From the NCBI GenBank assembly GCA_039831155.1, contig JBDONT010000043.1:96001-160000 (forward strand): a stretch of 64,000 nucleotides of DNA, read 5' to 3'. The translations under genes were made by a program, and so were the position numbers. The stretch's first letter is position 1. Each line of letters begins with the position of its first letter. The DNA is from Nautiliaceae bacterium. GTDB taxonomy: Bacteria > Campylobacterota > Campylobacteria > Campylobacterales > Nautiliaceae. The notes under the pieces were generated by a model. It ran no database searches. It was not told the origin of the DNA and saw only the letters and a program-made list of their open reading frames with translations. Positions 2,277 through 36,163 of this stretch are shown in pieces.

Positions 2277-3158
2277 ATGATAGGTATTATTGGAGCCGGT
2301 GCGTGGGGAAGTGCTCTTTTTTACGCTTTAAAAGAGAAAAATGAGTGTTTGATTACTTCTAGAAAAAGAAGAGATATTAAAGAGTTTGTAAGTTTAGAGG
2401 AAGTTTTAAAAAGCGAATATATAGTTATCTCAATTGCTGCTCAAGCTATTAGGGAATTTTTAAAAAAAGTGGATTTAAAAGATAAAAAAATTTTAGTGGC
2501 AAGTAAAGGGATAGACAATAAAGAGTTGAAATTTATAAATGAGCTTTTTGAGGAGTATGTAAGCAAAGATAATTTGGCATTTTTATCCGGTCCTTCATTT
2601 GCTAAAGAAGTTAGAGAAAAAAAACCGACAGCCCTTGTAGTTGCTTCTAAAAATATCAATCTAGCAGAAAAATTTGCCTCTTTTTTTCCTTCTTATTTAA
2701 AAATGTATACTTCTTTGGATGTTGAGGGGGTTGAGGTTGCCGGTGCTTATAAAAACGTAATAGCTATTGCAAGTGGAGTTTGTGAAGGGCTAAACCTTGG
2801 AAACAACGCAAAAGCCGCACTTCTTGCAAGGGGACTTGTGGAAATGGATAGATTTGGAGAAAAGTTCGGTGCTAAAAAAGATACGTTTTTAGGAGTGGCC
2901 GGAAGTGGGGATTTGTTTTTGACGGCAAATTCTACAATGAGCAGAAACTATAGAGTAGGGCTTAATTTGGCTAAAGGTAAGCTTCTTGAAGATATATTAA
3001 CAGAACTTGGCGAAGTTGCCGAAGGTGTTTATACAACAAAAGCGATTTATGAGATAGCTAAAAGAAAAAATATCTACACTCCGATTGCAAACGAAGTTTA
3101 TAGAATTATTTATGAGGGTAAAAACCCTCAAGAAAGCTTAAAAGATTTATTAAATTAA
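2277..3158 (+). CDS. gpsA: NAD(P)H-dependent glycerol-3-phosphate dehydrogenase
   Basis: GAGAWG, LSGPSFAKEV, GAYKNVIAIA, GDLFLTANSTMSRN motifs. Confidence 0.95.
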   Translation: MIGIIGAGAWGSALFYALKEKNECLITSRKRRDIKEFVSLEEVLKSEYIVISIAAQAIREFLKKVDLKDKKILVASKGIDNKELKFINELFEEYVSKDNLAFLSGPSFAKEVREKKPTALVVASKNINLAEKFASFFPSYLKMYTSLDVEGVEVAGAYKNVIAIASGVCEGLNLGNNAKAALLARGLVEMDRFGEKFGAKKDTFLGVAGSGDLFLTANSTMSRNYRVGLNLAKGKLLEDILTELGEVAEGVYTTKAIYEIAKRKNIYTPIANEVYRIIYEGKNPQESLKDLLN

Positions 3159-3280
3159 TCTTCTTTTTTTGCAGGTTGTACTTTAGTTTTTGCTCCAAGA
3201 GCGATTGAAAGCATCATTCCTGTTGCAATTACACACATTGCGATTGCAACGAATCCACCGAATGGTCCAGCGAAATCCAT
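3155..3280 (-). CDS. Unannotated 41-aa single-TM small protein (MDFAGPFGGFVAIAMCVIATGMMLSIALGAKTKVQPAKKED)
   Basis: AGGAG RBS just upstream of the ATG, extended -10 TGCTATAAT at 3306-3314 (minus strand), hydrophobic helix followed by a charged tail; below the ORF-track size cutoff. Confidence 0.75.
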   Translation of the reverse strand: MDFAGPFGGFVAIAMCVIATGMMLSIALGAKTKVQPAKKED

Positions 3281-3371
3281 AATTTCTCCTTTTTTGGTTT
3301 TGATTATTATAGCAAATTATGTGAATATGTGAATAAGTTTTGATAAAATTTTCTTAAAAAAAGAAGAAAAG

Positions 3372-4109
3372 ATGAGACTTGATTTGTATTTGGTAACAAA
3401 CGGCTATACATTTAGCAGAAACAAAGCCCAGGAACTTATAAAGAAAAGTTATGTAAAAGTTAATGAAAAAACAATTAAAAAACCTTCGTTTATGGTAGAA
3501 CAAGATGATAAAGTAGAGGTTTTAAAAGCTCAAGAGTATGTATCAAGAGCCGCTTATAAGCTTAAAAACTACCTGGATAAATACAGTCTCTCTTTTGAAA
3601 ATAAAAATGTGCTTGATATAGGTTCAAGTACAGGTGGATTTACTCAAGTTGCTTTGGAAAAAGGGGCTAAAAAGGTTGTTTCGGTAGATGTGGGAAATAA
3701 TCAGCTTCATTTTTCTTTAAGAGACAATCCTAAAATAGAGGTTTTTGAAAATACGGATATAAGAGACTTTCAATATCCTAAGAAGTTTGATATAGTAGTA
3801 AGCGACGTTAGTTTTATTTCATTACTTAAAATTTTGGATAAAATAGATTCTTTAATTGAAAAAGGGGAGATTATTTTGCTTTTTAAGCCTCAATTTGAGG
3901 TCGGGCGTGAAGTAAAAAGAGATAAAAGAGGAGTCGTAACCGATAAAGAAGTTATAAAAAAAGCAAGAAGTAATTTTGAAAAAGAGACAAAAAAACTTAA
4001 TTGGAAACTTTTAAGAAGTGAAGAGTCTAGTATAAAAGGAAAAGAGGGAAATATCGAGTATATTTACCATTTCGTAAAGGAAAATAATGATAAAAAGATA
4101 TCCGACTAA
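3372..4109 (+). CDS. tlyA: TlyA family rRNA 2'-O-methyltransferase
   Basis: S4 domain [45 protein letters not shown]. Confidence 0.95.
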
Positions 4110-5139
4110 AAAAATAAAAGTAGCAAATGTGGAAATTGGAGGAGACGCTCCTATTTCCGTGCAGTCTATGACATACTCTAAAACAAAAGATATTAAAAAC
4201 ACTTTAAATCAAATAAACGAACTCTATTTTGCAGGGGCTGATATAGTAAGAGTTGCCGTTTTGGATGAGGATGATGCAAACGCTTTAAAAGAGATTAAAG
4301 AAAAATCTCCTCTTCCTATAATTGCCGATATTCATTTTAACTATCGTTTAGGGTTAAAAGCTGCGGAAGTGGTTGACGGGCTTAGGATTAATCCCGGTAA
4401 TATCGGAGGGAAAGAGAGAATAAAAGCTATTGTGGATGTATGTAAGGCAAGAGGAATTCCTATAAGAATAGGGGTAAATGCCGGGTCTTTAGAAGAACAT
4501 CTTGAAAACAGATACGGACAAACTCCAAAGGCTATGGTTGAGTCTGCTCTTTGGCATATTAAGTTTTTAGAGGATTTGGATTTTACGGATATAAAAGTTT
4601 CTTTAAAAGCAAGTGACGTTCAAAGAACGGTTAAGGCGTATAGAATGCTTAGACCTCTTGTTGAGTATCCTTTTCATTTAGGGGTTACGGAAGCCGGTAC
4701 GAAATTTCACGCCACTATTAAATCGGCAGCAGCTTTTGGGGCACTTTTGCTTGATGGGATAGGAGATACGCTTAGGGTTTCCATTACCGGGGAACTTGAA
4801 GAAGAAATTAGAGTCGGGAAGGCTGTTTTAAAAGATTTGGGGCTTTTAAAAGAGGGGGTTAATATCATTTCTTGTCCTACTTGTGGAAGGATTGAGGTTG
4901 ATTTGCCACCTATTGTAGAAGCAGTTGAAAAGGCTGCTAAAGATATTAAAAAACCTTTAAACCTTGCCGTAATGGGTTGTGTGGTAAATGCTATAGGAGA
5001 AGCAAAAGAAGCGGATTTGGCTATAGCTTGTGGTAAAGGGTATGGGCTTATTATAAAAAAAGGTGAAGTTATAGGTAAGTATAAAGAAGATGAGCTGCTT
5101 GAAAGATTTTTGGAAGAAGTTAAAAAGGAGAGCGAATGA
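4087..5139 (+). CDS. ispG: 4-hydroxy-3-methylbut-2-en-1-yl diphosphate synthase
   Basis: [33 protein letters not shown]. Confidence 0.97.
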
Positions 5140-5435
5140 ATTCAGCAGGTTTGATAACGGTTGTAGTTTTAGGTGTGGCTTCTATGGCTTTTATTTTTAT
5201 GTTTTTAATTTTAAGGGAAGTTGAGGTAAATGAAGAGAGAATCGCTAAAATTTTGGGTAAAGATTTGGAAAAAATAAAAAAGGCAAAAGATGATGAAGAG
5301 TTAAAAGAGATTATAAGGTCTTTACCTAAAAATAAAAGAACAAAATTAAAAACTCTTTTTGAATCTCAAGATATAAGAGTAGCCGTTAATGAAATTAAAA
5401 AACATATCCTAAAAGTTAATCCTCCGGAAAATTAA
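5136..5435 (+). CDS. Hypothetical membrane-anchored protein
   Basis: ATGA overlap with ispG, AGGAG RBS, N-terminal hydrophobic helix. Confidence 0.6.
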
Positions 5436-5670
5436 TACGTAAATTAGGATCTGCTAGTACCTCATCGATAATAATTTCCAAATCTTCTTTTGCTTCTTTT
5501 AGGATGTTGAATTTGCCTTCGTTTTCAGATAAAATAACACCTATCTCAATAGGATTGTTTGAAGCTTTAAGCTCTTCTATTAGTTGTTCATCGTCTGTTT
5601 GAATGTATAGGCTTTTGTATTGCAGAGTCGCTATGGAATCTTTAAACGGATACGTGATTTTAATAATCAT
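5416..5670 (-). CDS. Hypothetical protein
   Basis: 84-aa ORF with AGG RBS, divergent from dnaB. Confidence 0.6.
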   Translation of the reverse strand: MIIKITYPFKDSIATLQYKSLYIQTDDEQLIEELKASNNPIEIGVILSENEGKFNILKEAKEDLEIIIDEVLADPNLRINFPED

Positions 5671-5713
5671 AAAAAACCTTTTTTTTATAATTTTAGCATA
5701 AAAGGAAAAAATT

Positions 5714-7114
5714 GTGGAACTTTATAATCTTGATATAGAAAGAGGAGTGCTTAGTGCCATACTTTTTGACGGAAAAGTTTATGAGGATGTCGCTTCTATT
5801 TTAAAGCCTCAAGACTTTTATCTGCCTTTTCATCAATACGTGTTTGAGGCGATGGAGGAACTTTATAAAAAAGATTATCCTATAGATGAAGTTTTTTTAA
5901 GGGATTTTTTAACTAAACAAAACAGATTTGATGAAGAGTTGTTTTTGGAAATTTTAGGAACAGCTCCTATAGAAGCCGTTGAAGCGTATGCAAAAGAGAT
6001 AAAAGATTTGGCCGTAAAAAGAGAACTTATTCATCTTTCAAATGAAATAAAAAAAATAGTTCTGGAAGAAGATAAAAGGGCTATTGAAGAGGTTGAAGAG
6101 ATTCAAGGGAAACTTTTTGCAATAGCCACTTCAAATTTGGCGGGGGATTTTAAAAACTCTTTTTCCATTGTTACGAAAACTTTAGAGTATATTGAAGAGC
6201 AGAAAAAGAAAAAAAACCAAATAGTAACAGGGCTTGATACCGGGTTTAGCGAACTTAATAGAATGACTAGCGGATTTGGAGAGGGGGATTTGATAATTAT
6301 TGCAGCAAGACCTAGTATGGGTAAAACGGCGTTTGCACTAAACTTAGCTTTAAACGTATTAAAACAAGACAAGGGTGTGGCTATATTTTCTCTTGAAATG
6401 CCGGCAGAACAGCTTATGCTAAGAATGCTTAGTGCCGCCGGGAATATCCCTTTGCAGGATTTAAGAAGGGGGAATTTGTCTCCGGAGGAGTGGAGCAAAC
6501 TTAGCGAACTTGCAGATGAGTTTAGCCAAAAGCCTCTTTTTGTGGATGATGAAGGGAATGTAAATATTCATACTATAAGAGCTAAACTTAGAAAACTAAA
6601 AATGCAAAATCCTAATTTGTCTTTGGCTATAATAGACTATTTGCAGCTAATCTCTTCGGACCAAAGAGAGAGGCATTTGGCTATTGCGGAAATTAGTAGA
6701 AGTTTAAAACTTTTAGCAAGAGAACTTCAAATTCCTATAATAGCACTTTCGCAGTTAAACCGGTCGCTTGAGAGTAGACCGAATAAGCGTCCTATGTTAA
6801 GTGACTTAAGAGAATCCGGTGCAATCGAACAAGACGCCGATATCATTATGTTTATTTATAGAGACGATGTGTATAAAGCTATGGAAGCCAGACAGAAACA
6901 AAAAGAAGCACTTGAAAAAGGAAAAGCCGTTGAGGTTAATTTTCAGGAAAAAGAAGTGGAAGATGCTGAAATAATTATAGGAAAACAAAGAAATGGACCT
7001 ACCGGAACGGTTGAGATGCTGTTTCATAAAAAATATACTCTGTTTACTGATAAATACAGTGAAGTTAAAGAGATTCAAATGAATGAAGCAGAAATAGAAC
7101 TTCCGCCTATTTAA
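5714..7114 (+). CDS. dnaB: Replicative DNA helicase
   Basis: AARPSMGKT, FSLEM, IIDYLQL, ALSQLNR, SDLRESGAIEQDAD, KQRNGPTG. Confidence 0.97.
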   Translation: MELYNLDIERGVLSAILFDGKVYEDVASILKPQDFYLPFHQYVFEAMEELYKKDYPIDEVFLRDFLTKQNRFDEELFLEILGTAPIEAVEAYAKEIKDLAVKRELIHLSNEIKKIVLEEDKRAIEEVEEIQGKLFAIATSNLAGDFKNSFSIVTKTLEYIEEQKKKKNQIVTGLDTGFSELNRMTSGFGEGDLIIIAARPSMGKTAFALNLALNVLKQDKGVAIFSLEMPAEQLMLRMLSAAGNIPLQDLRRGNLSPEEWSKLSELADEFSQKPLFVDDEGNVNIHTIRAKLRKLKMQNPNLSLAIIDYLQLISSDQRERHLAIAEISRSLKLLARELQIPIIALSQLNRSLESRPNKRPMLSDLRESGAIEQDADIIMFIYRDDVYKAMEARQKQKEALEKGKAVEVNFQEKEVEDAEIIIGKQRNGPTGTVEMLFHKKYTLFTDKYSEVKEIQMNEAEIELPPI

Positions 7115-8304
7115 TGAAAAAGGTAGTTGCTTTAATAGGGGTTTTAATTGTTTTTAGGGTTTTTGTCTCTTTTTTGGGGTATTTGGAGTTTAAATCTCAT
7201 AAAGTATTGGAAATTAACGCTAAAGTGGTAAATCAATATAAAAAGAAAAACCATTGGGTCTTAAAACTCAAAAACACTACCCTCTCTTTTTATACCACTT
7301 CAAAAGACAACTTAAAAAACCTCTTAAACGATAACGTAAAACTTGATATTATTACTTCAAAAGTCTCTTTTTTTGATTATCTTTTTACGTTTTACGCTCC
7401 CGGTTTTAATTTAAAGCTTTTACCTTTAAGTGAAGTTCAAATTTATATCGCTTCTCAACATAAAGATGAAAAACTCTCAAACCTTTTTAGGGCGTTGTTT
7501 TTGGGTGAAAGTATGGATTATAAGACTAAAAATGAATTAAGTACTCTTGGAATTTCTCATCTTTTTGCTTTAAGTGGACTTCATTTAGGGTTTATTTCTA
7601 TGTTTTTGTATTTTATTCTTTTGCCCGTTTATAAGATTTTTCATTCTAAATTCCCTTATAGAAACAGGTTTTTTGATTTGGGGGTGGTTGTTTTGGTGAT
7701 TGAGTTTTTGTATCTTTATTTTACTTCTTTTCCCCCTTCTTTGGTTAGAGCTTTTGTTTTGGAAGTTGTTGTTTTTTTATATATGGTGTATTTAAAAAAG
7801 CCTCTTTCGCTGGAAATTTTATTAACGGTTATTGTTATTTCTTTTATTGTTTTTGGTTTTAAGGTGTTTTTTTTGGGGTATTTTTTGAGTATTTTAGGGG
7901 TTTTTTATATTTATCTTTTTTTTAACCATTTTAAATTCGGATTTTTAAGTTCCGTTTTGCTTAGTTTTTATATGTTTTTAGTGATGTTTGTGATATCTCA
8001 TACGTTTTTTTGTAATTTTAATATGTACCAGCTTTTTTCGCCTTTTGTAAATATAGCTTTTTCACTCTTTTATCCTTTGGAGGTGCTTTTGCATTTTATG
8101 GGGTTTGGAGGTGTTTTTGATGAGGTTATTAAGAGTTATCTTTTACTGGGGGATAAGTTTGTTTGTATTAAGTTTCCTTTGATTTTCGGAGTTTTGTTTA
8201 TTTTGGTTAGTTTTTGGGCTTTTTTCTCAAAAAGAGTTTTTTTTGGTATAAATTTAATATCATTAATAGCAATATTTTATGCAATAGGAGAGAGTGTTGG
8301 ATAA
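7114..8304 (+). CDS. comEC: ComEC/Rec2 competence membrane protein
   Basis: GISHLFALSGLHLG and PSLVRA motifs; multiple TM segments. Confidence 0.9.
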   Translation: MKKVVALIGVLIVFRVFVSFLGYLEFKSHKVLEINAKVVNQYKKKNHWVLKLKNTTLSFYTTSKDNLKNLLNDNVKLDIITSKVSFFDYLFTFYAPGFNLKLLPLSEVQIYIASQHKDEKLSNLFRALFLGESMDYKTKNELSTLGISHLFALSGLHLGFISMFLYFILLPVYKIFHSKFPYRNRFFDLGVVVLVIEFLYLYFTSFPPSLVRAFVLEVVVFLYMVYLKKPLSLEILLTVIVISFIVFGFKVFFLGYFLSILGVFYIYLFFNHFKFGFLSSVLLSFYMFLVMFVISHTFFCNFNMYQLFSPFVNIAFSLFYPLEVLLHFMGFGGVFDEVIKSYLLLGDKFVCIKFPLIFGVLFILVSFWAFFSKRVFFGINLISLIAIFYAIGESVG

Positions 8305-10219
8305 GTTTAAAGACGTAAAAGAGTATGCGAATTATTTTAAAGAGTTGGTGGAAAAGGAAAGAATTGCCGAAAAAGAGTTTCATTTAAACGAAATTAAGCG
8401 TTTAAGTGGAGTTGAGAGACAAAAAAGAGGAAGAGCCGTCCTTGGGCTTAGGATGAAATTTGTAGGAGAGTTTTTAGATTTTAAGATTTATAAATTTAAC
8501 AGAAACAATATGCCAGAACATCAAATAAAAGTTGGCGATATCGTTTTGGTTAGTAAAGGCGAGCCTTTAAAATTTGCTAAAGAAGCAACGGTTAGCGGGG
8601 TTGGTAAGAATTTTATAGAAGTTTATTCAAAAGAGCCGATTTTCCGTTCTAAACTCTATAGGCTGGATTTATTTGTAAACGATATAACCTTTAAAAGAAT
8701 GATAAAAGCCCTAGAGAATGTGAAAAACGGAAACGTTCAAAACGACACGGATATTTTAATAGGTAAAAAACCACCTAAAATTGAAAAAGTGGAAGTAACA
8801 TCGGAAGTTTTAAACGAATCTCAAAATGTAGCCTTAAGAAAATCTATAAATTCGGATCTCTTTTTAATTCACGGGCCCCCGGGTACGGGAAAAACTACAA
8901 CTTTGGCCGAAGTTATAAAAAAACACATAGGAAAAAAACTTTTAGTTGCGGCAGACAGTAACGTAGCCGTTGATAATCTTCTTGAAAAGCTTAAAGACTA
9001 TAACGTAGTAAGAATAGGTCATCCGGCAAAAATGGATTCTAAACTTATGAAATACTCTTTAGATGTTAAAATAAGACGCGATAAAAGATATAAAGAAATT
9101 GAAAAGATTATTAAAAAAATCGACAATTTGAAATATCTTCAGGATAAAAAATATAAAAAACCGACTCCCGGAAGACGCAGAGGTTTAAGTGATGAAGAAA
9201 TTTTAAAATACGCTAAAGAAAACAGAAGTGCTAGGGGAGTTTTAAGAGAGTGGATGAAGGAGATGGCAGAGTGGATTAAAATTCAGAAAAACATCAATAA
9301 ACTTTATGACGAAAAGAATAAAAAAACAGAAATTATTATGAATGATATTTTGGATAAGGCAGAAATTATTTTCGCTACCAATTCTGCTTGTGGGGGAGAG
9401 TTTTTGGAAAATAGAACGTTTGATGTAGTTTTTATCGACGAAGCGGCTCAAGCTATGGAACCTAGCACCCTTATACCTTATACAAAGGCAAAAAGAGTTG
9501 TTTTTGCCGGTGACCATAAGCAGTTGCCACCTACTATTTTGAGTAATGACGAAAGATTGAAAATCAGTATGTTTGAGAGGTTTAGTGCCATTTATCCGTC
9601 TGCTATGCATACGCTGGGGGTTCAATACAGAATGAATAAAAAAATAAACGATTTTCCAAGTTGCGAATTTTATGATTGTAAGGTAAAAACCGATAAAAGC
9701 GTGGAGAATATAACTATTTTGGATTTGGGTATTAATATTGAAGATTACGGAAAAGAAGAGCCTTTGGTGTTTATAGATACGTGTGGGAAGTTTTTGGAAA
9801 AAAGCAAAAAAGATTCACCCTCAAAATATAACCCTTTAGAAGCCGAATTTGTAAAAGAGATGATTAAAAAGTTTTTGGAAAAAGGAAAAGAGGAGTTTAT
9901 AGGGGTTATTACTCCTTATAAAGACCACGAAGAGTATATAAAAACCATTCTTGAAAAAGAGAATATAAAAGATGTGGAAGTAAAAAGCGTTGACGGATTT
10001 CAGGGAAGAGAAAAAGAGATTATAATATTAAGCCTTGTAAGGGCAAATTCAAAAGAAGAGATAGGGTTTTTAAACGATATAAGACGTTTAAACGTAGCTA
10101 TTACAAGAGCTAAAAGAAAGTTGATTATCGTAGGGGATGCTAAAACGTTGAGCAGTAATAAAACGTATATGAATTTGATACAATATGTAAAAAATAACGG
10201 CTTTTATGAGCAGATTTAA
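8294..10219 (+). CDS. SF1 Upf1/IGHMBP2-like helicase
   Basis: LNESQ, HGPPGTGKT, SNVAVDNL, IDEAAQ, GDHKQLPP, QYRM, VDGFQGREKE, RRLNVAITRAK. Confidence 0.92.
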   Translation: MLDKFKDVKEYANYFKELVEKERIAEKEFHLNEIKRLSGVERQKRGRAVLGLRMKFVGEFLDFKIYKFNRNNMPEHQIKVGDIVLVSKGEPLKFAKEATVSGVGKNFIEVYSKEPIFRSKLYRLDLFVNDITFKRMIKALENVKNGNVQNDTDILIGKKPPKIEKVEVTSEVLNESQNVALRKSINSDLFLIHGPPGTGKTTTLAEVIKKHIGKKLLVAADSNVAVDNLLEKLKDYNVVRIGHPAKMDSKLMKYSLDVKIRRDKRYKEIEKIIKKIDNLKYLQDKKYKKPTPGRRRGLSDEEILKYAKENRSARGVLREWMKEMAEWIKIQKNINKLYDEKNKKTEIIMNDILDKAEIIFATNSACGGEFLENRTFDVVFIDEAAQAMEPSTLIPYTKAKRVVFAGDHKQLPPTILSNDERLKISMFERFSAIYPSAMHTLGVQYRMNKKINDFPSCEFYDCKVKTDKSVENITILDLGINIEDYGKEEPLVFIDTCGKFLEKSKKDSPSKYNPLEAEFVKEMIKKFLEKGKEEFIGVITPYKDHEEYIKTILEKENIKDVEVKSVDGFQGREKEIIILSLVRANSKEEIGFLNDIRRLNVAITRAKRKLIIVGDAKTLSSNKTYMNLIQYVKNNGFYEQI

Positions 10220-30370: not shown

Positions 30371-30889
30371 TTATTTGTAGTTTTCTATAGCTTTTTTAAT
30401 AAGTTCAATCGCTTTTTCTCTTCCTTCATATCCTGTAACTTTAACCCATTTTCCGGGTTCAAGGTCTTTGTATGTTTCGAAGAAATGTTTGATTTGGTTT
30501 AGTTCAATTTCCGGTAAATCACTTAAATCGTTAATTTTTGCCATTTTAGGGTCAAGTTTTAGAGTAGGTACCGCTACTATTTTTTCATCTTTTCCACTCT
30601 CATCTTCCATAATTAATACACCTATAACTTTACTTTTAATTACAGTCCCAGGTACTACACTCTCACTTGATAGAACTAAAATATCAATAGGGTCTCCGTC
30701 ATCTGCAAGTGTGTTTGGTACAAATCCGTAGTTTGCCGGGTAAAATTGACTCCCGTAAAGAATTCTATCAAGGAAAACCGCTCCGCTTTCTTTGTCAAGT
30801 TCATATTTGATGTTGCTTCCTTGAGGAATTTCAATTACTGCGTTTACCGCTTCTTCAGGGTTTCCAGGTTTGATTTTTGTTATATCCAT
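30371..30889 (-). CDS. ppa: Family I inorganic pyrophosphatase
   Basis: KYELDK, YPANYG, DGDPID, HFFETYKDLE. Confidence 0.97.
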   Translation of the reverse strand: MDITKIKPGNPEEAVNAVIEIPQGSNIKYELDKESGAVFLDRILYGSQFYPANYGFVPNTLADDGDPIDILVLSSESVVPGTVIKSKVIGVLIMEDESGKDEKIVAVPTLKLDPKMAKINDLSDLPEIELNQIKHFFETYKDLEPGKWVKVTGYEGREKAIELIKKAIENYK

Positions 30890-30977
30890 TAAGTCTCCTT
30901 TTTTGTGGAATTATATAATAATTTATACAAAAATTTTACGTTTTATTAAAAATAAGTTAATTTTTTGAAAAAAATTC

Positions 30978-31006
30978 TTGTTTTCTTATGGAAGTGTTGT
31001 TATAAT
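30978..31006 (+). promoter_or_regulatory. Sigma70 extended -10 promoter of the hydrogenase operon
   Basis: TTGTTT-17nt-TATAAT with TG directly upstream (TGTTATAAT). Confidence 0.6.
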
Positions 31007-31013
31007 CGCCTTA

Positions 31014-31126
31014 AGGAAAAGGTATATTTTAATATTGAATTTTGAATTTACGTGAATTTACAATTCAGTATTATTTTTTTCAGTATTTTTAATATATCTT
31101 TTCCTATCAATAAAAAAAAGGAAAAG
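31014..31126 (+). promoter_or_regulatory. Structured 5' leader with alternative anti-SD pairing
   Basis: Long imperfect hairpin 31014-31105 containing G-U pairs; its 3' arm CTTTTCCT is also complementary to the RBS AGGAAAAG at 31119-31126. Confidence 0.55.
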
Positions 31127-31128
31127 TT

Positions 31129-32655
31129 ATGAAGTTATCTATAGATCCCGTAACACGTATTGAAGGACACTTGAAAGTCGAAGTTAAAATTAAAAACTCC
31201 AAAATAGTTTCGGCGAAGTGTTCGGCCGATATGTACAGGGGGCTTGAAAAAGCCTTAAAAGGTTACGATTATTTAACGGCTATACAAATAACGCAAAGAA
31301 CGTGCGGGTGCTGTCCTTACGCTCATGCGGAGGCGGCGGCTCTGGCAATTGAAGACGCACTTCAGATTGAGCTTAACAAAAACGCGAAACTTTTAAGAAA
31401 CATGGTAATAGGGGCGTATAAGCTTAAAGATTACCTTTTGCATTTTTATACGCTAAGTTCGCTTGATTTTATCGATTTGAAAAAAATACTTGATTATACG
31501 GGCGACGATTTTAAAATGAACGAACTGAAAAACTATATATTAAAAGAAATATCCTCGAAAAAGGTTTTTCCGTCTCCTCTTTTCATTCAAAGATACAAAA
31601 ACGTCTACACCCAAAACGAAAAATACAACATAACGATGATAAGGCACTATCTAGAAAGTTTCGAAATTATGAGAAAAGTTTCCGAAATGGTTAAAATTTT
31701 CGGTGCCAAAGCCCCTCATATGACAACCATAGAAGCCGGGGGAATTACGACAAGACCTACGGCTGACAGACTTGTTAAATATATAAATCTTGCCGAAGAT
31801 GTAAGGGAGTTTATTCATAAAAAATATTTCGAAGACGTTTTAAATACTGCAAAACAGTATAAGGAATATTTTAAAATAGGAAGAGGGGTAAATAATTTCC
31901 TTACATTCAACACATTGCTTAATCTTGACGGTAGTTATATGTTCGTTGCTGGATTCAGTAAGGATTTCAGGTTTGAAGAAGGCGTTGAGCCTTATGAGAT
32001 TGTGGAATACAACAATTACGCGTATTATAAAGAAAACGGCGGCTATAAACCTTTGGAGCTTGACGATTTGCATCCGGTAGATTTGAATGAATTTGAAAAC
32101 AGCGACAAATATTCGTGGTCAAGGGCTCCGAGATACAAAGGAAACGTGGTTGAAGTTGGACCGGCGGCGATTGTTATCAATACTTATTTAAGCGGAAAAA
32201 ACGAAAAACTAAACGCACTTGTGGATGAGGTCAATGAGAAGCTGGGCATAACGATCAAAGATTACAATACCGTTATGGGAAGACACCTTGCAAGAGCGAT
32301 AGTCAGCAGGCTTATAATAGACAAATTAATCGACGACGCTTTAAAAGTGGACGAGGGTGTTTTAGGGTTTACTCAGTTGAAACAGCCGCCTTCAAACGTA
32401 AAAGGAGTAGGGCTTACCGAAGCTACAAGGGGAGCGCTTGCCCATTTTATAGACATAGGCGATAACGGGTTTATAAGAAATTACGAAATGGTCGTACCTA
32501 CGACATGGAATATTTCCCCTAAAGACAACAGGGATATCCCGGGGGCGCTTGAGAGTATGCTTATAGGTACGCATATCAAAGATGAAAAAAATCCTATAGA
32601 AATCGCAAGAATAATAAGAAGCACCGACCCGTGTCTTGCGTGTGCGGTGCATTAA
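31129..32655 (+). CDS. [NiFe]-hydrogenase large subunit without a cleavable C-terminal extension
   Basis: IDPVTRIEGH, L1 QRTCGCCPYAH, EATRGALAH, VVPTTWN, L2 RSTDPCLACAVH followed directly by TAA. Confidence 0.96.
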   Translation: MKLSIDPVTRIEGHLKVEVKIKNSKIVSAKCSADMYRGLEKALKGYDYLTAIQITQRTCGCCPYAHAEAAALAIEDALQIELNKNAKLLRNMVIGAYKLKDYLLHFYTLSSLDFIDLKKILDYTGDDFKMNELKNYILKEISSKKVFPSPLFIQRYKNVYTQNEKYNITMIRHYLESFEIMRKVSEMVKIFGAKAPHMTTIEAGGITTRPTADRLVKYINLAEDVREFIHKKYFEDVLNTAKQYKEYFKIGRGVNNFLTFNTLLNLDGSYMFVAGFSKDFRFEEGVEPYEIVEYNNYAYYKENGGYKPLELDDLHPVDLNEFENSDKYSWSRAPRYKGNVVEVGPAAIVINTYLSGKNEKLNALVDEVNEKLGITIKDYNTVMGRHLARAIVSRLIIDKLIDDALKVDEGVLGFTQLKQPPSNVKGVGLTEATRGALAHFIDIGDNGFIRNYEMVVPTTWNISPKDNRDIPGALESMLIGTHIKDEKNPIEIARIIRSTDPCLACAVH

Positions 32656-32664
32656 GGAGCTGGA

Positions 32665-33594
32665 ATGGACAGAAGGGAATTTTTAAAAACGGCACAAGGT
32701 TTGCTGGCAACTGTTTTTGGCAGTTCTTTTATCAGTATCGAAGAGCTTGACGCTATGGAAACGTCCGAAAACAAACCGGATTTGATATGGATTCACGCTA
32801 TGAGCTGCGACGGGTGTTCGACAGCGTTTTTAAATGCGGAAGTGCCTTTGGTTGATATTTTAAGCAGGTTTGTGAATATTGTTTTTCATCCGACGATTAT
32901 GGCAAGCGACGGAAAACTGAGTATGGAAATACTTAAAAAATACGAAAACAGTGAAAACGAATTGATTTTGGTTGTCGAAGGTGCTATTCCTAGTAAAGAG
33001 ATGCCGCATGTGTGTATGATGGGGGAAGAATTTATAAGGGATACTATCATAAAAGTCGCAAGAAACGCATCGCTTGCGATTGCTGCCGGTACGTGTGCCA
33101 CATTCCTCGGGATATGTGATATGAAAGGCATGCATACGAATGCGGTATCGCTTCATAAATGTTTCGAAGAGGAGGGAATTGAAACGCCTCTTATCAATCT
33201 TCCGACCTGTCCTATGAAGCCGAACCATTTGTTATATACGGTTTTTTATTATATGAAGCACCAAAAACTTCCGCCTCTGGATTTGACGCACAGGCCGCTA
33301 AGGTTTTTCGGTAATACCGTTCATGAAAGATGTATTTACTACAACGATTATCAGGAAAAAATTTTTGCCAAAAAAATAGGAGACAGGGGTTGTCTGTTTA
33401 AACTCGGATGTCAGGGACCGGTTACCAAGTGTGACTGTATTAAAAGCAGTAATGATTACGATAAATACAACTGTATAAAAAGCGGGCATCCGTGTGTGGG
33501 GTGTGCGAGTGAAAACTTCCCTAGAAATATACTCTTTAAACGTTATGACGATGAGAGACCCCTTGTAAAATACAAAGATTTTAAAAGGATATAA
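32665..33594 (+). CDS. [NiFe]-hydrogenase small subunit with twin-arginine signal
   Basis: [50 protein letters not shown]; no C-terminal TM. Confidence 0.94.
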
Positions 33595-33596
33595 CT

Positions 33597-35366
33597 ATGA
33601 AAGATTTTATAAAATCCTCGCTTTTTTTTAAACTTATCGTTATTCCTATAGTTTTATTAGGTGCCACGATAGCCGGGATTATGATTTATCTGCAGGCGTA
33701 CGGTAATAAAATTGTAGAAAAAAGTGCTCAAGAATATACTAAAAAAATCTTAAAATCATACATTACGTTTTCGAAAAGTTCTATTGAAAAAGGACAGAGA
33801 TTTTCATTTCAGGAAGTTGTGGACGGAATGAAAACCCTTGAAGGTGTAAAAAACGTTTACAGTTTCAGTGCGGACGGGTTTATGATGTATAAAGACGGAG
33901 AAAAAAGCGTGGGGCTTCCTTTTGTAAGAAAAAACGGAAAATTTTACAATCCGAATATCAAATATTACGATAAAAGCAACGGTCTTTGGATGAGGGACGA
34001 CTGGTTTTATAAATATATTAAAGATTCCATTATAACGGAATGTATGTATAAAAAGCTGCATCCGGGAGATAGGAATTGTGCCAGATGTCATTATATGATT
34101 CCTCAGAATTTAAAATTTAATAATAGAGAGGCTTTTGTAGTAAATAAAAACGAAGTGACGGCTTATTATAAATTACCGGTTGATAATAGTTGTATTAAAT
34201 GTCATACTCATTGGAATATAAACGGAATCGGAGGATATTTAGGTGTAAAAATAGACTTGAGCGGAGAAAAAGCTAAAATAGAGTCTATAATAAATAAACT
34301 CAAATATGCTTTGATGTTTTTATCTGTTATAGGATTGGCTATATTTGTATATTATATTTTTGTTGTGGGTAGGTTAAGAGGTAATTTAATCAAACTTAAA
34401 GATATTACGGCGGATTTAGCCGAAGGCGAAGGGGATTTGACTAAAAGAGTAAATATAAATTCTAAAGACGAAGCGGCTGATATCGCTAATAATTTAAATA
34501 AATTTATAGAAAAAATTCAAGATATTGTAGAACAACTTAAAGCTTCCATACGTTCTTCTTCAAGTACGGCTAATGAAGTTTCCAATGTCGTTCATATTAT
34601 AGAAGATACGTTGAAAACTCAAAAAAAACTTATTGCAAAAAATAGAGAATGTACCGATTTTATAAATCAGGATTTGGCATCTGCGGAAGCAAGTGTTATT
34701 TCTACTGCCGATGATATTACCGAAACACAAAAAGTATTGGATGAAACGGTAGAGACTCTTTTAAAAGTTATTGAAGAAATCAAAAATGAAGCGGAAGCGG
34801 AGTCGGAATTATCGGATAAAGCTACCAATCTTTCTCAAAAAAGTACTCAAATAAAAGAAATATTAAAAATTATTAAAGAAATTGCCGATCAAACTAATTT
34901 GCTTGCTTTAAACGCTGCAATAGAAGCGGCAAGAGCAGGGGAACACGGAAGAGGTTTTGCAGTTGTTGCGGACGAAGTTAGAAAACTTGCCGAAAAAACT
35001 CAACAAAGTTTGAATGAAATAGATAGTGTGGTTAGTTTGATATTGCAAGATATTCAAGAAATTGAAACCAGTATTCAAAAAAATTCTCAAAAAGCTTTAT
35101 CAATTTCCGATATTACAAAGAAACTTGCTTCTAAAACTGATGAGACTAAAAAATCTTTAGACGAAACTATAAAAAGAGCTTATATAGCTACTAAAGAAAC
35201 TACTAAAATAAATGTAAAAGTTAGAGAACTTACCGAAAATGCCGATCAATTAACAAAACAGGCGAATGAAAGTGAAGAAGTGGGGAATAAGCTTAAAATG
35301 GTATTTAGCAATTTAAATAAATTGATTAGTTCTTTAAAAAATGAGACGGATAAGTTTAAAACTTAG
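33597..35366 (+). CDS. Methyl-accepting chemotaxis protein with di-heme c periplasmic sensor domain
   Basis: Two TMs flank CARCH (34077-34091) and CIKCH (34191-34205); HAMP GDLTKR..DE; signalling hairpin [38 protein letters not shown]. Confidence 0.93.
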
Positions 35367-36163
35367 TCCTTTTCATTTTTTTTATTAAATCTAATTAAAT
35401 ACATTCCGCTAATATAAATTATCCAGTTTATATAAATCCAAAGGAACAGAAACATTAAAATAGAAATTGATCCGTATAGGCTTTCATAAGTTTTGTTGAT
35501 TAAAGTGTATTTGATAAATACGTTTTTTGAAATAAAAAATATTAGAGTTATAAAAAAAGAAACTGTAATTATAGGAGAGGTTTCTTCTTCCAGGAGAGTT
35601 ATTTTGTAAAATAAAAAAAATATCAGCCATATCATTAAAAAAGGAGCAAAAGTTGCAAGATGTATCCAAGAAGTATAATTCCAGTGATTTAAAATAATTT
35701 GAAATTTAACGGATAAATATGTCGCACTTGCAAAGAGAATGGGAAAAAGAGTGAGTATGGTCCAATATAATTTTATTTTTTCCCATAGGTTTCTTTTTTT
35801 TTGATTAAAAATTTTTGAAACGATGGTTTCATAGTTATCAAAAAACAAAATAGATGTTATTAAAATATAAAATCCTCCTAAGAATCCTGTTTTATCGGAA
35901 TTATTCAAAAAGTTTTTTAAATATTCGGATATTATTTGAGCGTTACTAGGAAGTAGATTGGAACTGATGAAATGTTCCGTTTTTATATAAAATTCCGTAA
36001 AAAAAGGTGTATTGGCGAATATAGTTAAAATGATTAATAATAAAGGAACAATAGAAAAGATTGTGTAAAAGCTAAGTGCCGCTGCATATAAAGTTATATT
36101 ATTTATAGTATCTTTAACTTTAAGAAAGTCTATGTTTTTTATAAATTTTTTAATTCTATTCAC
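35363..36163 (-). CDS. YihY/BrkB family membrane protein
   Basis: [14 protein letters not shown] and YESLYGS...LWIY motifs. Confidence 0.88.

Follow-up and report, generated by a model that had tools for sequence, protein, structure and literature searches.

The window analysed here, a 64,000-nucleotide stretch of a contig from a Nautiliaceae bacterium, carries three tightly packed genes for a [NiFe] hydrogenase large subunit, a hydrogenase small subunit and a methyl-accepting chemotaxis protein (MCP) (Table 1). This gene order, with gaps of 9 and 2 nt, had been read in the initial annotation and is borne out by the ORF coordinates, the large-small subunit junction being TAA-ggagctgga-ATG and the small subunit-MCP junction TAA-ct-ATG. 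Genes lying at most about 5 kb away encode a pyrophosphatase (divergent), an acetyl-CoA synthetase, a BrkB-family protein (convergent), an ABC-F ATPase, RibF and UvrC. Within this distance of the operon we found no gene for a cytochrome b or c, an endopeptidase, a histidine kinase or a GGDEF protein, in agreement with the earlier statement that cytochrome b, maturation protease, histidine kinase and diguanylate cyclase are not adjacent.

Table 1. Features of the hydrogenase-MCP operon, in positions of the window
Feature	Position	Strand	Length or residues	Basis or remark
Intergenic region 5' of the operon, presumed promoter region	30890-31128	+		Sequence read; common to the divergent pyrophosphatase gene
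[NiFe] hydrogenase large subunit ORF	31129-32655	+	508 aa	
Hydrogenase small subunit ORF	32665-33594	+	309 aa	
Tat signal peptide of the small subunit	32665-32754	+	residues 1-30	Cleavage inferred after conserved L-x-A at residue 30
MCP ORF	33597-35366	+	589 aa	
MCP membrane helix 1	33621-33692	+	residues 9-32	Hydropathy; no His
Periplasmic sensor domain, predicted single-Cache fold with insertion	33693-34304	+	residues 33-236	AlphaFold2, VIA-align, alignments
First CxxCH motif, CARCH	34077-34091	+	residues 161-165	In insertion absent from monoheme relatives
Second CxxCH motif, CIKCH	34191-34205	+	residues 199-203	Before last beta strand; common to monoheme relatives
MCP membrane helix 2	34305-34373	+	residues 237-259	Hydropathy; no His
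HAMP domain	34365-34523	+	residues 257-309	Pfam
MCP signalling domain	34809-35279	+	residues 405-561	Pfam

The promoter scan around the operon returned 19 matches where 17.5 were expected, and since these promoter-like matches are at chance level no promoter was assigned. Separate transcription of the MCP gene had been named as a result that would speak against a joint system; the scan detected no terminator-like site inside the operon and is uninformative on transcription. Contigs of two RNA-seq libraries (X1 and X2) from one vent sample span all three genes, the large-small subunit junction being bridged by X1 record 2 and X2 record 11 and the small subunit-MCP junction by X2 record 12, a variant with 15 differences; such contigs are proof neither of transcription nor of a single transcript. 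The three genes are presumably cotranscribed. Positions 30903-31103 are uncovered by the X1 and X2 contigs and are covered in a DNA run of a relative, and the sequencing runs X3-X8 gave small shares only.

The hydrogenase subunits and their export signal

The large subunit matches PF00374 (Pfam, 2.9e-126) and retains all four Ni-Fe cysteines, in CGCC (59-62) and CLAC (502-505); its L2 motif is STDPCLACAVH, with Cys and not Sec at the active site. It terminates at His508, the last active-site histidine, and the same end is found in nine of nine orthologues examined. A C-terminal extension cut by a dedicated endopeptidase is a defining feature of group 1 large subunits, and respiratory HoxG extends 15 residues past its final His whereas regulatory HoxC does not. 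The sole HycI-type endopeptidase gene of the genome adjoins the other group 1 enzyme, and the large subunit, used as a single-protein query against a collection of genome contigs, found two loci only. Identity to HoxG is 30% (234 bits) and to HoxC 26% (192 bits), while the best PDB matches (up to 294 bits) place the Desulfovibrio-type [NiFe] and [NiFeSe] enzymes nearest; the [NiFeSe] small subunit match reached 162 bits, and NCBIfam NF033181 481 bits, under its cut-off of 600. By these bit scores and identities the large subunit resembles group 1 enzymes most and is nearer to their respiratory members than to the sensor HoxC.

The operon nevertheless lacks features expected of group 1, namely a linked cytochrome b/c or a small-subunit anchor, and an extension on the large subunit. 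With group 2b it shares the extension-free large subunit, but HoxC/HupV are not its closest relatives and its small subunit is not of the cytoplasmic type. In the available text of PMC4853749, group 2 hydrogenases are cytosolic and the L2 consensus of group 2c is SFDxCLVCTVH; at this locus the motif given above and a Tat signal stand instead.

The small subunit matches PF01058 and PF14720 (Pfam) and begins with MDRREFLK. Residues R3, R4, L28 and A30 are invariant in all 25 aligned small subunits, and so are the 12 ligands of three FeS clusters (C48, C51, C144, C182, H220, C223, C243, C249, C258, C270, C277 and C280). In its last 60 residues the maximal 19-residue hydropathy is 0.36 and the tail is short and basic; the protein therefore has no membrane anchor. 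The RREFLK signal and the missing transmembrane anchor had both been recognized earlier, and a cytoplasmic hydrogenase, which would have contradicted the periplasmic reading, is at odds with a twin-arginine motif conserved in 25 of 25 sequences. The genome also encodes TatC and a cytochrome c synthase.

The sensor domain and its predicted contact with the hydrogenase

The MCP has two membrane helices, a HAMP domain, also matched in Pfam, and an MCP signalling domain (PF00015, 3.9e-37), and CheA, CheW and CheV genes are present in the genome. The two CxxCH motifs that the initial annotation had placed between the membrane helices are indeed there, and both are conserved without exception (33 of 33 sensor domains); each probably carries a covalently bound heme. 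No second invariant His or Met was found across these 33 domains. An open heme coordination site, as the alignment may indicate, would suit gas binding as much as electron transfer.

The AlphaFold2 model of the sensor domain, built on a 33-sequence alignment, has a pLDDT of 87.8; an earlier model from 12 sequences reached 63, and its Foldseek matches were all above E 0.03. The best VIA-align match of the new model is WalK (Z 10.0, rmsd 3.8, 132 aligned), with KinD at Z 9.4 and Tll0287 at Z 7.6 (rmsd 3.4, 115 aligned), and WalK is also the top Foldseek match (E 1.3e-3). The predicted fold is thus that of a single-Cache domain. No Pfam family scored above threshold for this domain: PF11845 gave weak matches (E 0.9-1.3) for the sensor domains of two relatives and was unlisted for the domain of the window. 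When the sensor domain was used as a profile query against PDB sequences, nothing significant came up (best E 0.31), and for the monoheme relative P0105 the only PDB matches were MCP cytoplasmic domains.

Sub-threshold matches to the c7, c3, NapC and MtrC heme families span both motifs. Together with a small subunit that has no anchor of its own, they would fit a periplasmic domain whose main role is to hold the hydrogenase at the membrane and to pass electrons on to other acceptors in the manner of a c-type cytochrome, signalling being secondary or absent. We give this explanation very little chance, since the output domains (MCP, GGDEF or histidine kinase) are intact and conserved and the membrane helices of the MCP hold neither heme b ligands nor another quinone route.

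Modelling the small subunit with the periplasmic domain of the MCP had been proposed with the initial annotation. The prediction, run with small subunit residues 31-309, the sensor domain and two hemes, gave a median score of 0.43 (runs 0.01, 0.43 and 0.56), the best of three controls being 0.00. Among solved complexes 116 of 157 reach the mark applied, as do 2 of 215 mismatched pairs; 18 of those 157 complexes and both passing mismatches lie at 0.60 or under. The runs share at least 58% of contacts, and partner pLDDT is at least 85. The pair stands apart from its controls, but with a weak score and one of three runs at 0.01, and the prediction weakly supports an association of the small subunit with the sensor.

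Conservation of the pairing and alternative readings

Gene neighbourhoods, whose survey had also been proposed, show the linkage in other genomes, high-GC ones included. A full-length MCP orthologue occurs in seven of 40 related genomes, with the small subunit gene directly upstream in all seven; the large subunit gene is visible in six, and the contig of the seventh ends first. Among 36 metagenome loci with the sensor domain, which range from 26 to 69% GC, the small subunit gene lies directly upstream on the same strand in 35, several of them near-duplicates and so not 35 independent cases. The large subunit gene is visible in 30 of these, five being cut by a contig end. In a 401-genome sample of the phylum the large subunit clade and the sensor were each found in 8 genomes; of the nine genomes with either part, seven have both, and there they are adjacent. 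Chance adjacency was considered and is ruled out by the 35 metagenome loci and the seven genomes with both parts.

The output attached to the sensor varies. At two loci (L021 and L053) the small subunit gene is immediately followed by a fusion of the domain with GGDEF, and the best 47 profile matches comprise 33 MCPs, 3 GGDEF proteins, 5 histidine kinases and 6 output-less proteins or fragments, some relatives of the sensor domain being hybrid histidine kinases. This modularity points to signalling and not to respiration. Each of the 51 proteins newly listed above E 1e-30 contains exactly two CxxCH motifs, about 39 residues apart; judging from these sequences, a second heme motif occurs only in the hydrogenase-linked family.

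The two parts also occur separately. One complete genome (G103) has the hydrogenase clade, here following a molybdopterin oxidoreductase, an FeS protein and a TorD-like chaperone, and lacks the sensor domain; enzymes of this clade can thus serve other partners. This molybdoenzyme operon would fit an ordinary soluble periplasmic uptake hydrogenase that works in respiration with an unlinked periplasmic acceptor, the MCP being a co-regulated neighbour that senses something unrelated. Both subunits score best against periplasmic Desulfovibrio-type [NiFe]/[NiFeSe] enzymes, and two genome papers describe the orthologue as a periplasmic uptake enzyme in their available text (PMC2628731, PMC10092268). 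We nevertheless regard this as quite improbable: the sensor domain occurs almost only beside this hydrogenase and keeps its position when the output switches to GGDEF, no acceptor gene is linked, and the complex prediction scores weakly but above its null controls.

Conversely, a genome rated 100% complete in 90 contigs (G188) carries a sensor MCP 61% identical to that of the window. The 361 nt upstream of it, up to the contig end, contain no small subunit gene, and the best large subunit match of this genome is only 34-35% identical, so that the sensor can exist without this hydrogenase. Such a case, like the lack of an invariant sixth ligand in the 33 sensor domains, would suit hemes that sense an oxidant or gas (NO, O2, sulfide, polysulfide) or ambient redox, the hydrogenase only keeping them reduced or resetting them; the signal would then be the H2-acceptor balance or the acceptor itself, and not H2 as such. 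According to the available text of a preprint (PMC12889525), Cache-heme domains with a single heme that are joined to signalling modules act as NO sensors. An entire dedicated hydrogenase directly upstream in 35 of 36 loci from very different genomes argues against this reading, as does the confinement of the second heme motif to the hydrogenase-linked family, and we hold it to be unlikely.

A possible route from external H2 to behaviour

We consider it probable that H2 oxidation by the periplasmic hydrogenase sets the redox state of the MCP hemes, the pair forming an extracytoplasmic H2-sensing module. Both subunits would mature in the cytoplasm and be exported by Tat through the signal of the small subunit, giving a soluble periplasmic [NiFe] hydrogenase without a quinone-reducing partner. 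Electrons from H2 would run through the three FeS clusters and on into the periplasmic domain of the neighbouring MCP, a single-Cache sensor with two putative c-type heme sites, of which one may be ancestral and the one in the insertion is probably the electron entry. The heme redox state might then track the local H2 level, weighed against ambient oxidants, and alter the Cache conformation; the change would reach the MCP signalling domain by way of membrane helix 2 and HAMP, and that domain would steer swimming through CheA/CheW. Electron transfer from hydrogenase to heme, the receiving heme and the sign of the behavioural response are all presumed in this scheme.

The sensory part of the initial reading, in which the hydrogenase signals to the MCP, is favoured by the linkage, the GGDEF and histidine-kinase fusions and the extension-free large subunit; those of the proposed computational checks that were carried out all came out in its favour. 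Its restriction to chemotaxis does not stand: since the same hydrogenase and sensor feed diguanylate cyclases in other genomes, the module appears to be a general H2 input.

HoxBC of Cupriavidus necator and HupUV are group 2b H2 sensors, located in the cytoplasm and signalling via the kinases HoxJ/HupT. As in these systems, a dedicated hydrogenase lies beside a signal transducer, some relatives of the sensor are histidine kinases, and the large subunit ends, like HoxC, at the last active-site His. In contrast to HoxBC, the enzyme studied here has a Tat signal, its large subunit is encoded first (the small subunit comes first in pHG1), and its partner is a transmembrane protein with periplasmic heme motifs instead of a soluble kinase. 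The best sequence matches are to the periplasmic group 1 [NiFe]/[NiFeSe] uptake enzymes of sulfate reducers, whose electron acceptor is cytochrome c3; these are likewise soluble, Tat-exported and without cytochrome b. They too donate to c-type hemes, whereas the acceptor here would be a heme module within a signalling protein; the large subunit gene standing first is a further difference.

On the sensor side, the sCache_heme family (DUF3365/Tll0287) includes Geobacter GSU0582 and GSU0935 and is fused to MCP, GGDEF and kinase outputs, as stated in the available text of PMC12889525. The present domain shares with it an extracytoplasmic Cache fold, as predicted, and a CxxCH directly before the last strand, but it carries a second heme motif, placed in an insertion; PF11845 gave no more than the weak matches of two relatives noted above. 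The hydrogenase linkage is absent from the main text of that preprint, where the words 'hydrogenase', 'diheme' and 'two heme' have 0 occurrences. Putative sensory classes in HydDB, as given in the available part of PMC5037454, are [NiFe] 2c, linked to diguanylate cyclases, and the chemotactic [FeFe] C2. Both resemble the proposed module as H2-sensing hydrogenases signalling via c-di-GMP enzymes or MCPs, but [FeFe] C2 is cytoplasmic and has a different catalytic centre from the [NiFe] enzyme with a Tat signal described here. The earlier remark that no characterised system of this architecture is known needs qualifying: we found no description of the hydrogenase-heme MCP pairing in the open-access literature, while the concept of an MCP-signalling hydrogenase exists for the putative cytoplasmic class [FeFe] C2 (PMC5037454, available part). 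Among the literature found, behavioural evidence of H2 taxis concerns only an archaeon (PMC3817446, available text), and in the open-access literature we found no described bacterial receptor for it.

Recurrence of the pairing in many unrelated bacteria suggests what is probably an uncharacterised way to sense H2 from outside the cytoplasm. On the wider claim, that of a widespread and unrecognised class of extracytoplasmic sensory [NiFe] hydrogenases, we are evenly divided. Its marks would be a large subunit encoded first and free of extension, Tat export and no respiratory partner; in a two-heme Cache sensor equilibrated with the H2/H+ couple, heme redox poise would reflect the H2 partial pressure, and this reading would cross the membrane to chemotaxis, c-di-GMP or two-component outputs. 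Such a class would explain bacterial H2 taxis at the molecular level, and it would be the first case where an enzyme serves a chemoreceptor as its ligand-recognising half by way of electron transfer.

H2 is among the main fuels in vent, sediment and gut habitats, and the H2 sensors known to us are cytoplasmic and control transcription. If the proposed H2-sensing module is real, Cache-domain sensing would gain a cofactor-relay mode, and a hydrogenase taken in genome papers for a second uptake enzyme would have to be redefined; its modular sensor could also be put to use as an H2 biosensor. The module would offer a testable molecular route from external H2 to decisions on swimming, biofilm formation and gene regulation.

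The three genes and their conservation

An ORF listing confirmed the three ORFs at the positions assigned by the initial annotation (see table), and the gaps between them are, as it had stated, 9 nt (with GGAG within) and 2 nt. The Ni-Fe cysteine pairs of the large subunit are CGCC (residues 59-62) and CLAC (502-505), and its C-terminal residue is the active-site His508. The claims that the small subunit has an export signal without an anchor and that the MCP has two CxxCH motifs between its membrane helices also held. Indeed, the small subunit starts with MDRREFLK and has a short, hydrophilic C-terminus (maximum hydropathy 0.36 over the last 60 residues), and CARCH (161-165) and CIKCH (199-203) lie between hydrophobic helices at residues ~9-32 and ~237-259 of the MCP. 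A sequence scan of 30700-35700 found no terminator-like site. The operon is flanked by housekeeping genes, upstream a divergent pyrophosphatase and an acetyl-CoA synthetase, downstream a convergent BrkB-family gene, then ABC-F ATPase, RibF and UvrC; these being all of other kinds, no cytochrome b, endopeptidase, histidine kinase or GGDEF gene lies nearby, as had been noticed.

Coordinates of the operon's genes and of two local sequence features (window positions)
Feature	Position	Strand	Basis
[NiFe] hydrogenase large subunit	31129-32655	+	PF00374 match, 2.9e-126
L1 motif of the large subunit	31303-31314		
Hydrogenase small subunit	32665-33594	+	Both small-subunit Pfam domains matched
Basic tail of the small subunit	33520-33591		Conserved, after last FeS ligand
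MCP	33597-35366	+	HAMP and MCP signalling domain (Pfam)

Two RNA-seq libraries from the same hydrothermal-vent sample, X1 and X2, contain 82% and 67% of the words sampled from the stretch, and their contigs together cover all three genes. The junction between large and small subunit is bridged by X1 record 2 (31170-33410) and X2 record 11, and that between small subunit and MCP by X2 record 12 (33069-33650, a variant with 15 differences); such contigs are proof of neither transcription nor a single transcript.

The gene pairing on which the initial annotation had built its reading recurs in other genomes. A full-length MCP orthologue (49-90% identical) is present in 7 of 40 related genomes (G001-G005, G017, G034), each time with the small subunit immediately 5' of it; the large subunit end is seen in six, the seventh contig stopping within the small subunit. 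Metagenome contigs scanned with a pattern from the sensor-domain alignment yielded 36 loci, 35 of which have the small subunit directly upstream on the same strand, although these are not 35 independent events, as there are near-duplicates among them and loci that match genomes counted above. The large subunit precedes in 30 of the 35, and the other five are cut by the contig end. Since the GC content of the sensor loci ranges from 26% to 69% (52-69% in L066, L067, L068 and L070), the arrangement occurs well beyond the low-GC Campylobacterota. Across 401 genomes sampled evenly from the phylum, relatives of the large subunit (E<=1e-100) were found in 8, the sensor domain (E<=1e-20) in 8, and both, adjacent, in 7.

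The remaining metagenome locus, L072 (68% GC; 3811-5426), is a degraded chimera of large subunit, sensor and EAL fragments: a single 327-aa frame fuses the first two, with the EAL fragment next. It looks, from its sequence, like the remains of a hydrogenase-sensor-GGDEF/EAL system. In another metagenome locus, L068 (57% GC), the sensor MCP is followed directly by a HupE/UreJ nickel-transporter gene, and divergent hypA and hypB genes are found upstream; the module travels with nickel supply genes in that organism.

Hydrogenase and sensor are usually together, not always. The complete genome G103 has both subunits (55% identical, large subunit first, RR signal intact), and the sensor domain is absent from anywhere in it. 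Its hydrogenase pair (locus L030, G103:C1:139000-154000, ORFs 2751-8803) is preceded, within a single gene string, by a molybdopterin oxidoreductase, a 4Fe-4S protein and a TorD-like chaperone, an arrangement that may couple H2 directly to a molybdoenzyme in the periplasm.

Type of hydrogenase

Compared with solved structures, the large subunit scores best against Desulfovibrio-type periplasmic [NiFe] enzymes (291-294 bits), followed by [NiFeSe] enzymes (~274-282 bits), the Allochromatium-type 3myr (275 bits), E. coli Hyd-2 (244 bits) and Hyd-1 (~214 bits) and the mycobacterial-type Hydrogenase-2 (146 bits). The best structure match of the small subunit is a [NiFeSe] small subunit (162 bits). 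The best NCBIfam model, NF033181, gives 481 bits, under its cut-off of 600. Of the two pHG1 enzymes of Cupriavidus necator, the respiratory HoxG (30% identity, 234 bits) is closer to the large subunit than the regulatory HoxC (26%, 192 bits). The second group 1 large subunit of the host genome is 30% identical; the large subunits of sensor-linked loci share 47-98%. These scores and identities point to a distinct clade nearest group 1. A large subunit from an uncultured Nautiliales bacterium is 98% identical; relatives of 500-540 aa that are 48-73% identical include those from Hydrogenimonas, Sulfurimonas, Sulfurospirillum and Arcobacteraceae, as well as from Desulfurivibrionaceae, SAR324 and one gammaproteobacterium.

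The clade stands out by three features. The large subunit comes first in every locus of the clade, in contrast to both pHG1 operons, where the small subunit does. Moreover, its last residue is the final His, in the window as in all 9 orthologues examined, and the same is true of HoxC, whereas HoxG extends 15 residues further. Third, there is no linked gene for a respiratory partner. In regulatory hydrogenases, lack of the C-terminal extension accompanies maturation that is independent of an endopeptidase. The host assembly (1.53 Mb, rated 96.7% complete, the window being its contig C20) contains several further hydrogenase loci, and its only HycI-type endopeptidase gene adjoins the second group 1-type large subunit on contig C38. 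That region, outside the window (G000:C38:83350-88645), comprises a 390-aa large-subunit-like frame, the group 1-type large subunit (583-aa frame) and the endopeptidase gene; in the available parts of two papers, the Nautilia equivalents of its enzymes are named a cytoplasmic 'sensing' enzyme and a membrane-bound uptake enzyme (PMC2628731, PMC10092268).

The L1 motif is CGCC in Nautilia-type loci, CGVC in Sulfurimonas-type loci and CGTC in locus L021; in Desulfovibrio enzymes this position lines the gas channel at its end, and in regulatory hydrogenases it is bulkier. The basic tail of the small subunit reads DDxRxIxKYKxFKRI in Nautilia-type sequences, with D296 and R298 the same in all 25 sequences, and could serve for docking to the sensor or to the membrane.

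The putative heme sensor domain and its outputs

No Pfam family was above threshold on the periplasmic sensor domain of the MCP (residues 33-236). Weak matches over the two CxxCH motifs were to the c7, c3, NapC and MtrC heme families, with others to sCache_4 (E 9e-4, in one relative) and Tll0287-like (E ~1). A confident AlphaFold2 model from a 33-sequence alignment (pLDDT 87.8, pTM 0.85) was compared with structure representatives, and the top matches were extracytoplasmic Cache/PDC sensors only: WalK (Z 10.0, rmsd 3.8, 132 aligned), KinD (Z 9.4), a formate chemoreceptor (Z 8.4), Tlp3 (Z 8.3) and the heme protein Tll0287 (Z 7.6, rmsd 3.4, 115 aligned, 15% identity). Foldseek agreed weakly (WalK at E 1.3e-3).

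A sensor profile run against 1.84 billion representative proteins gave 182 matches at E<=1e-3 and 54 at E<=1e-30; all 51 newly listed proteins better than E 1e-30 have exactly two CxxCH, ~39 residues apart. The weaker matches are mostly MCPs of ~470-560 aa with a single CxxCH near residue 149, whose alignment with the profile is confined to its N-terminal and C-terminal parts. One of these proteins, P0105, has the EKGQRxTFQ-like start and the C..CH.W...G.L end of the sensor domain and lacks the middle section. By comparison with such single-CxxCH relatives, the second motif, CIKCH, just before the last strand, is the ancestral heme site, and the first, CARCH, lies in an insertion specific to the hydrogenase-linked family. 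A 'sCache_heme' family with its CxxCH just before the last strand is described in a 2026 preprint, the accessible text of which mentions neither hydrogenases nor two-heme forms (PMC12889525).

The output-domain scan covered the 47 top profile matches, after exclusion of four short fragments and three proteins known as MCPs. The outputs were MCP in 33, GGDEF in 3 and histidine kinase in 5 (3 of them hybrid kinases with receiver and Hpt domains); 6 had no output domain or were fragments. Immediately 3' of the small subunit in loci L021 and L053 is a gene for the same helix-sensor-helix unit, with GGDEF in place of the MCP module. Such swapping of outputs with the hydrogenase kept upstream would be expected of a signalling input module, not of a respiratory complex.

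Both CxxCH motifs are invariant across 33 sensor domains, and no further His or Met is invariant among them. This lack of a constant candidate for a sixth ligand keeps alive the main rival explanation, in our view rather improbable, of hemes that respond to an oxidant or a gas, with supply of reductant as the hydrogenase's only role. The same holds for an orphan sensor MCP in genome G188 (two-heme type, 61% identical; locus L075, G188:C58:29000-35401, MCP 4269-6041, - strand). No small subunit is present in the 361 nt between this MCP and the contig end upstream, and no hydrogenase of the operon's clade was found in the G188 genome, where large subunit matches show only 33-35% identity in long alignments and, in one case, 45% over residues 3-122. 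Downstream are a PAS-like 194-aa gene and another MCP. Resembling the Nautilia type more than its host's relatives, the G188 MCP may have been acquired by gene transfer.

Proposed H2 signalling

It is likely that H2 oxidation by the Tat-exported enzyme reduces the hemes of the receptor, which signals via its Cache domain and MCP module to CheA. The soluble enzyme would oxidize H2 and reduce first the inserted heme, through which, or directly, the ancestral Cache heme would be reduced; the heme redox state would then change the conformation of the Cache domain, and the MCP would pass this change on to CheA. Since [NiFe] enzymes are reversible, low-potential hemes could be in equilibrium with the H2/H+ couple; a separate sink for the sensor's electrons would then be unnecessary. 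The host genome encodes TatC, a cytochrome c synthase-family protein (823-aa frame) and a CheW-domain gene cluster that includes an 817-aa CheA-sized frame; thus, it is equipped for export, heme attachment and chemotaxis signalling.

A single complex prediction of the small subunit (31-309) with the sensor domain (33-236) and two hemes, run with three controls, scored 0.01, 0.43 and 0.56 (median 0.43) vs 0.00 for the best control. Of 157 solved complexes, 116 attained this mark, as did 2 of 215 mismatched pairs; with scores of 0.60 or under, however, just 18 of the 157 did so, along with both of the mismatches that passed. At least 58% of contacts are common to the runs, with a partner pLDDT of at least 85. 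This modelling gives a small push in favour of contact between the two proteins but is no proof of it.

The likely orthologue in Nautilia profundicola (GAmH_0978/0979) has been described as a second, soluble periplasmic uptake hydrogenase, and the available part of that paper mentions no MCP beside it (PMC2628731). In Nautilia sp. PV-1, C3L23_RS02955-RS02960 was called 'a periplasmic ... uptake [Ni-Fe] hydrogenase'; the annotation supplement lists the adjoining RS02965 as an MCP, a link that the accessible portion of the article does not discuss (PMC10092268). The sensory classes in the HydDB table are 2b (kinase-linked), 2c (diguanylate cyclase-linked, putative) and [FeFe] C2 (chemotactic, putative), and it has no periplasmic sensory [NiFe] class (PMC5037454). 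We found no description of a hydrogenase paired with a heme-MCP in the open-access literature.

To conclude, the feature is conserved and real, and very likely functional. In contrast to the known pairs of H2-sensing hydrogenase and signal transducer, sensing would here take place in the periplasm, the partner would be a transmembrane heme-Cache transducer, and the proposed link between the two is electron transfer to the receptor hemes.
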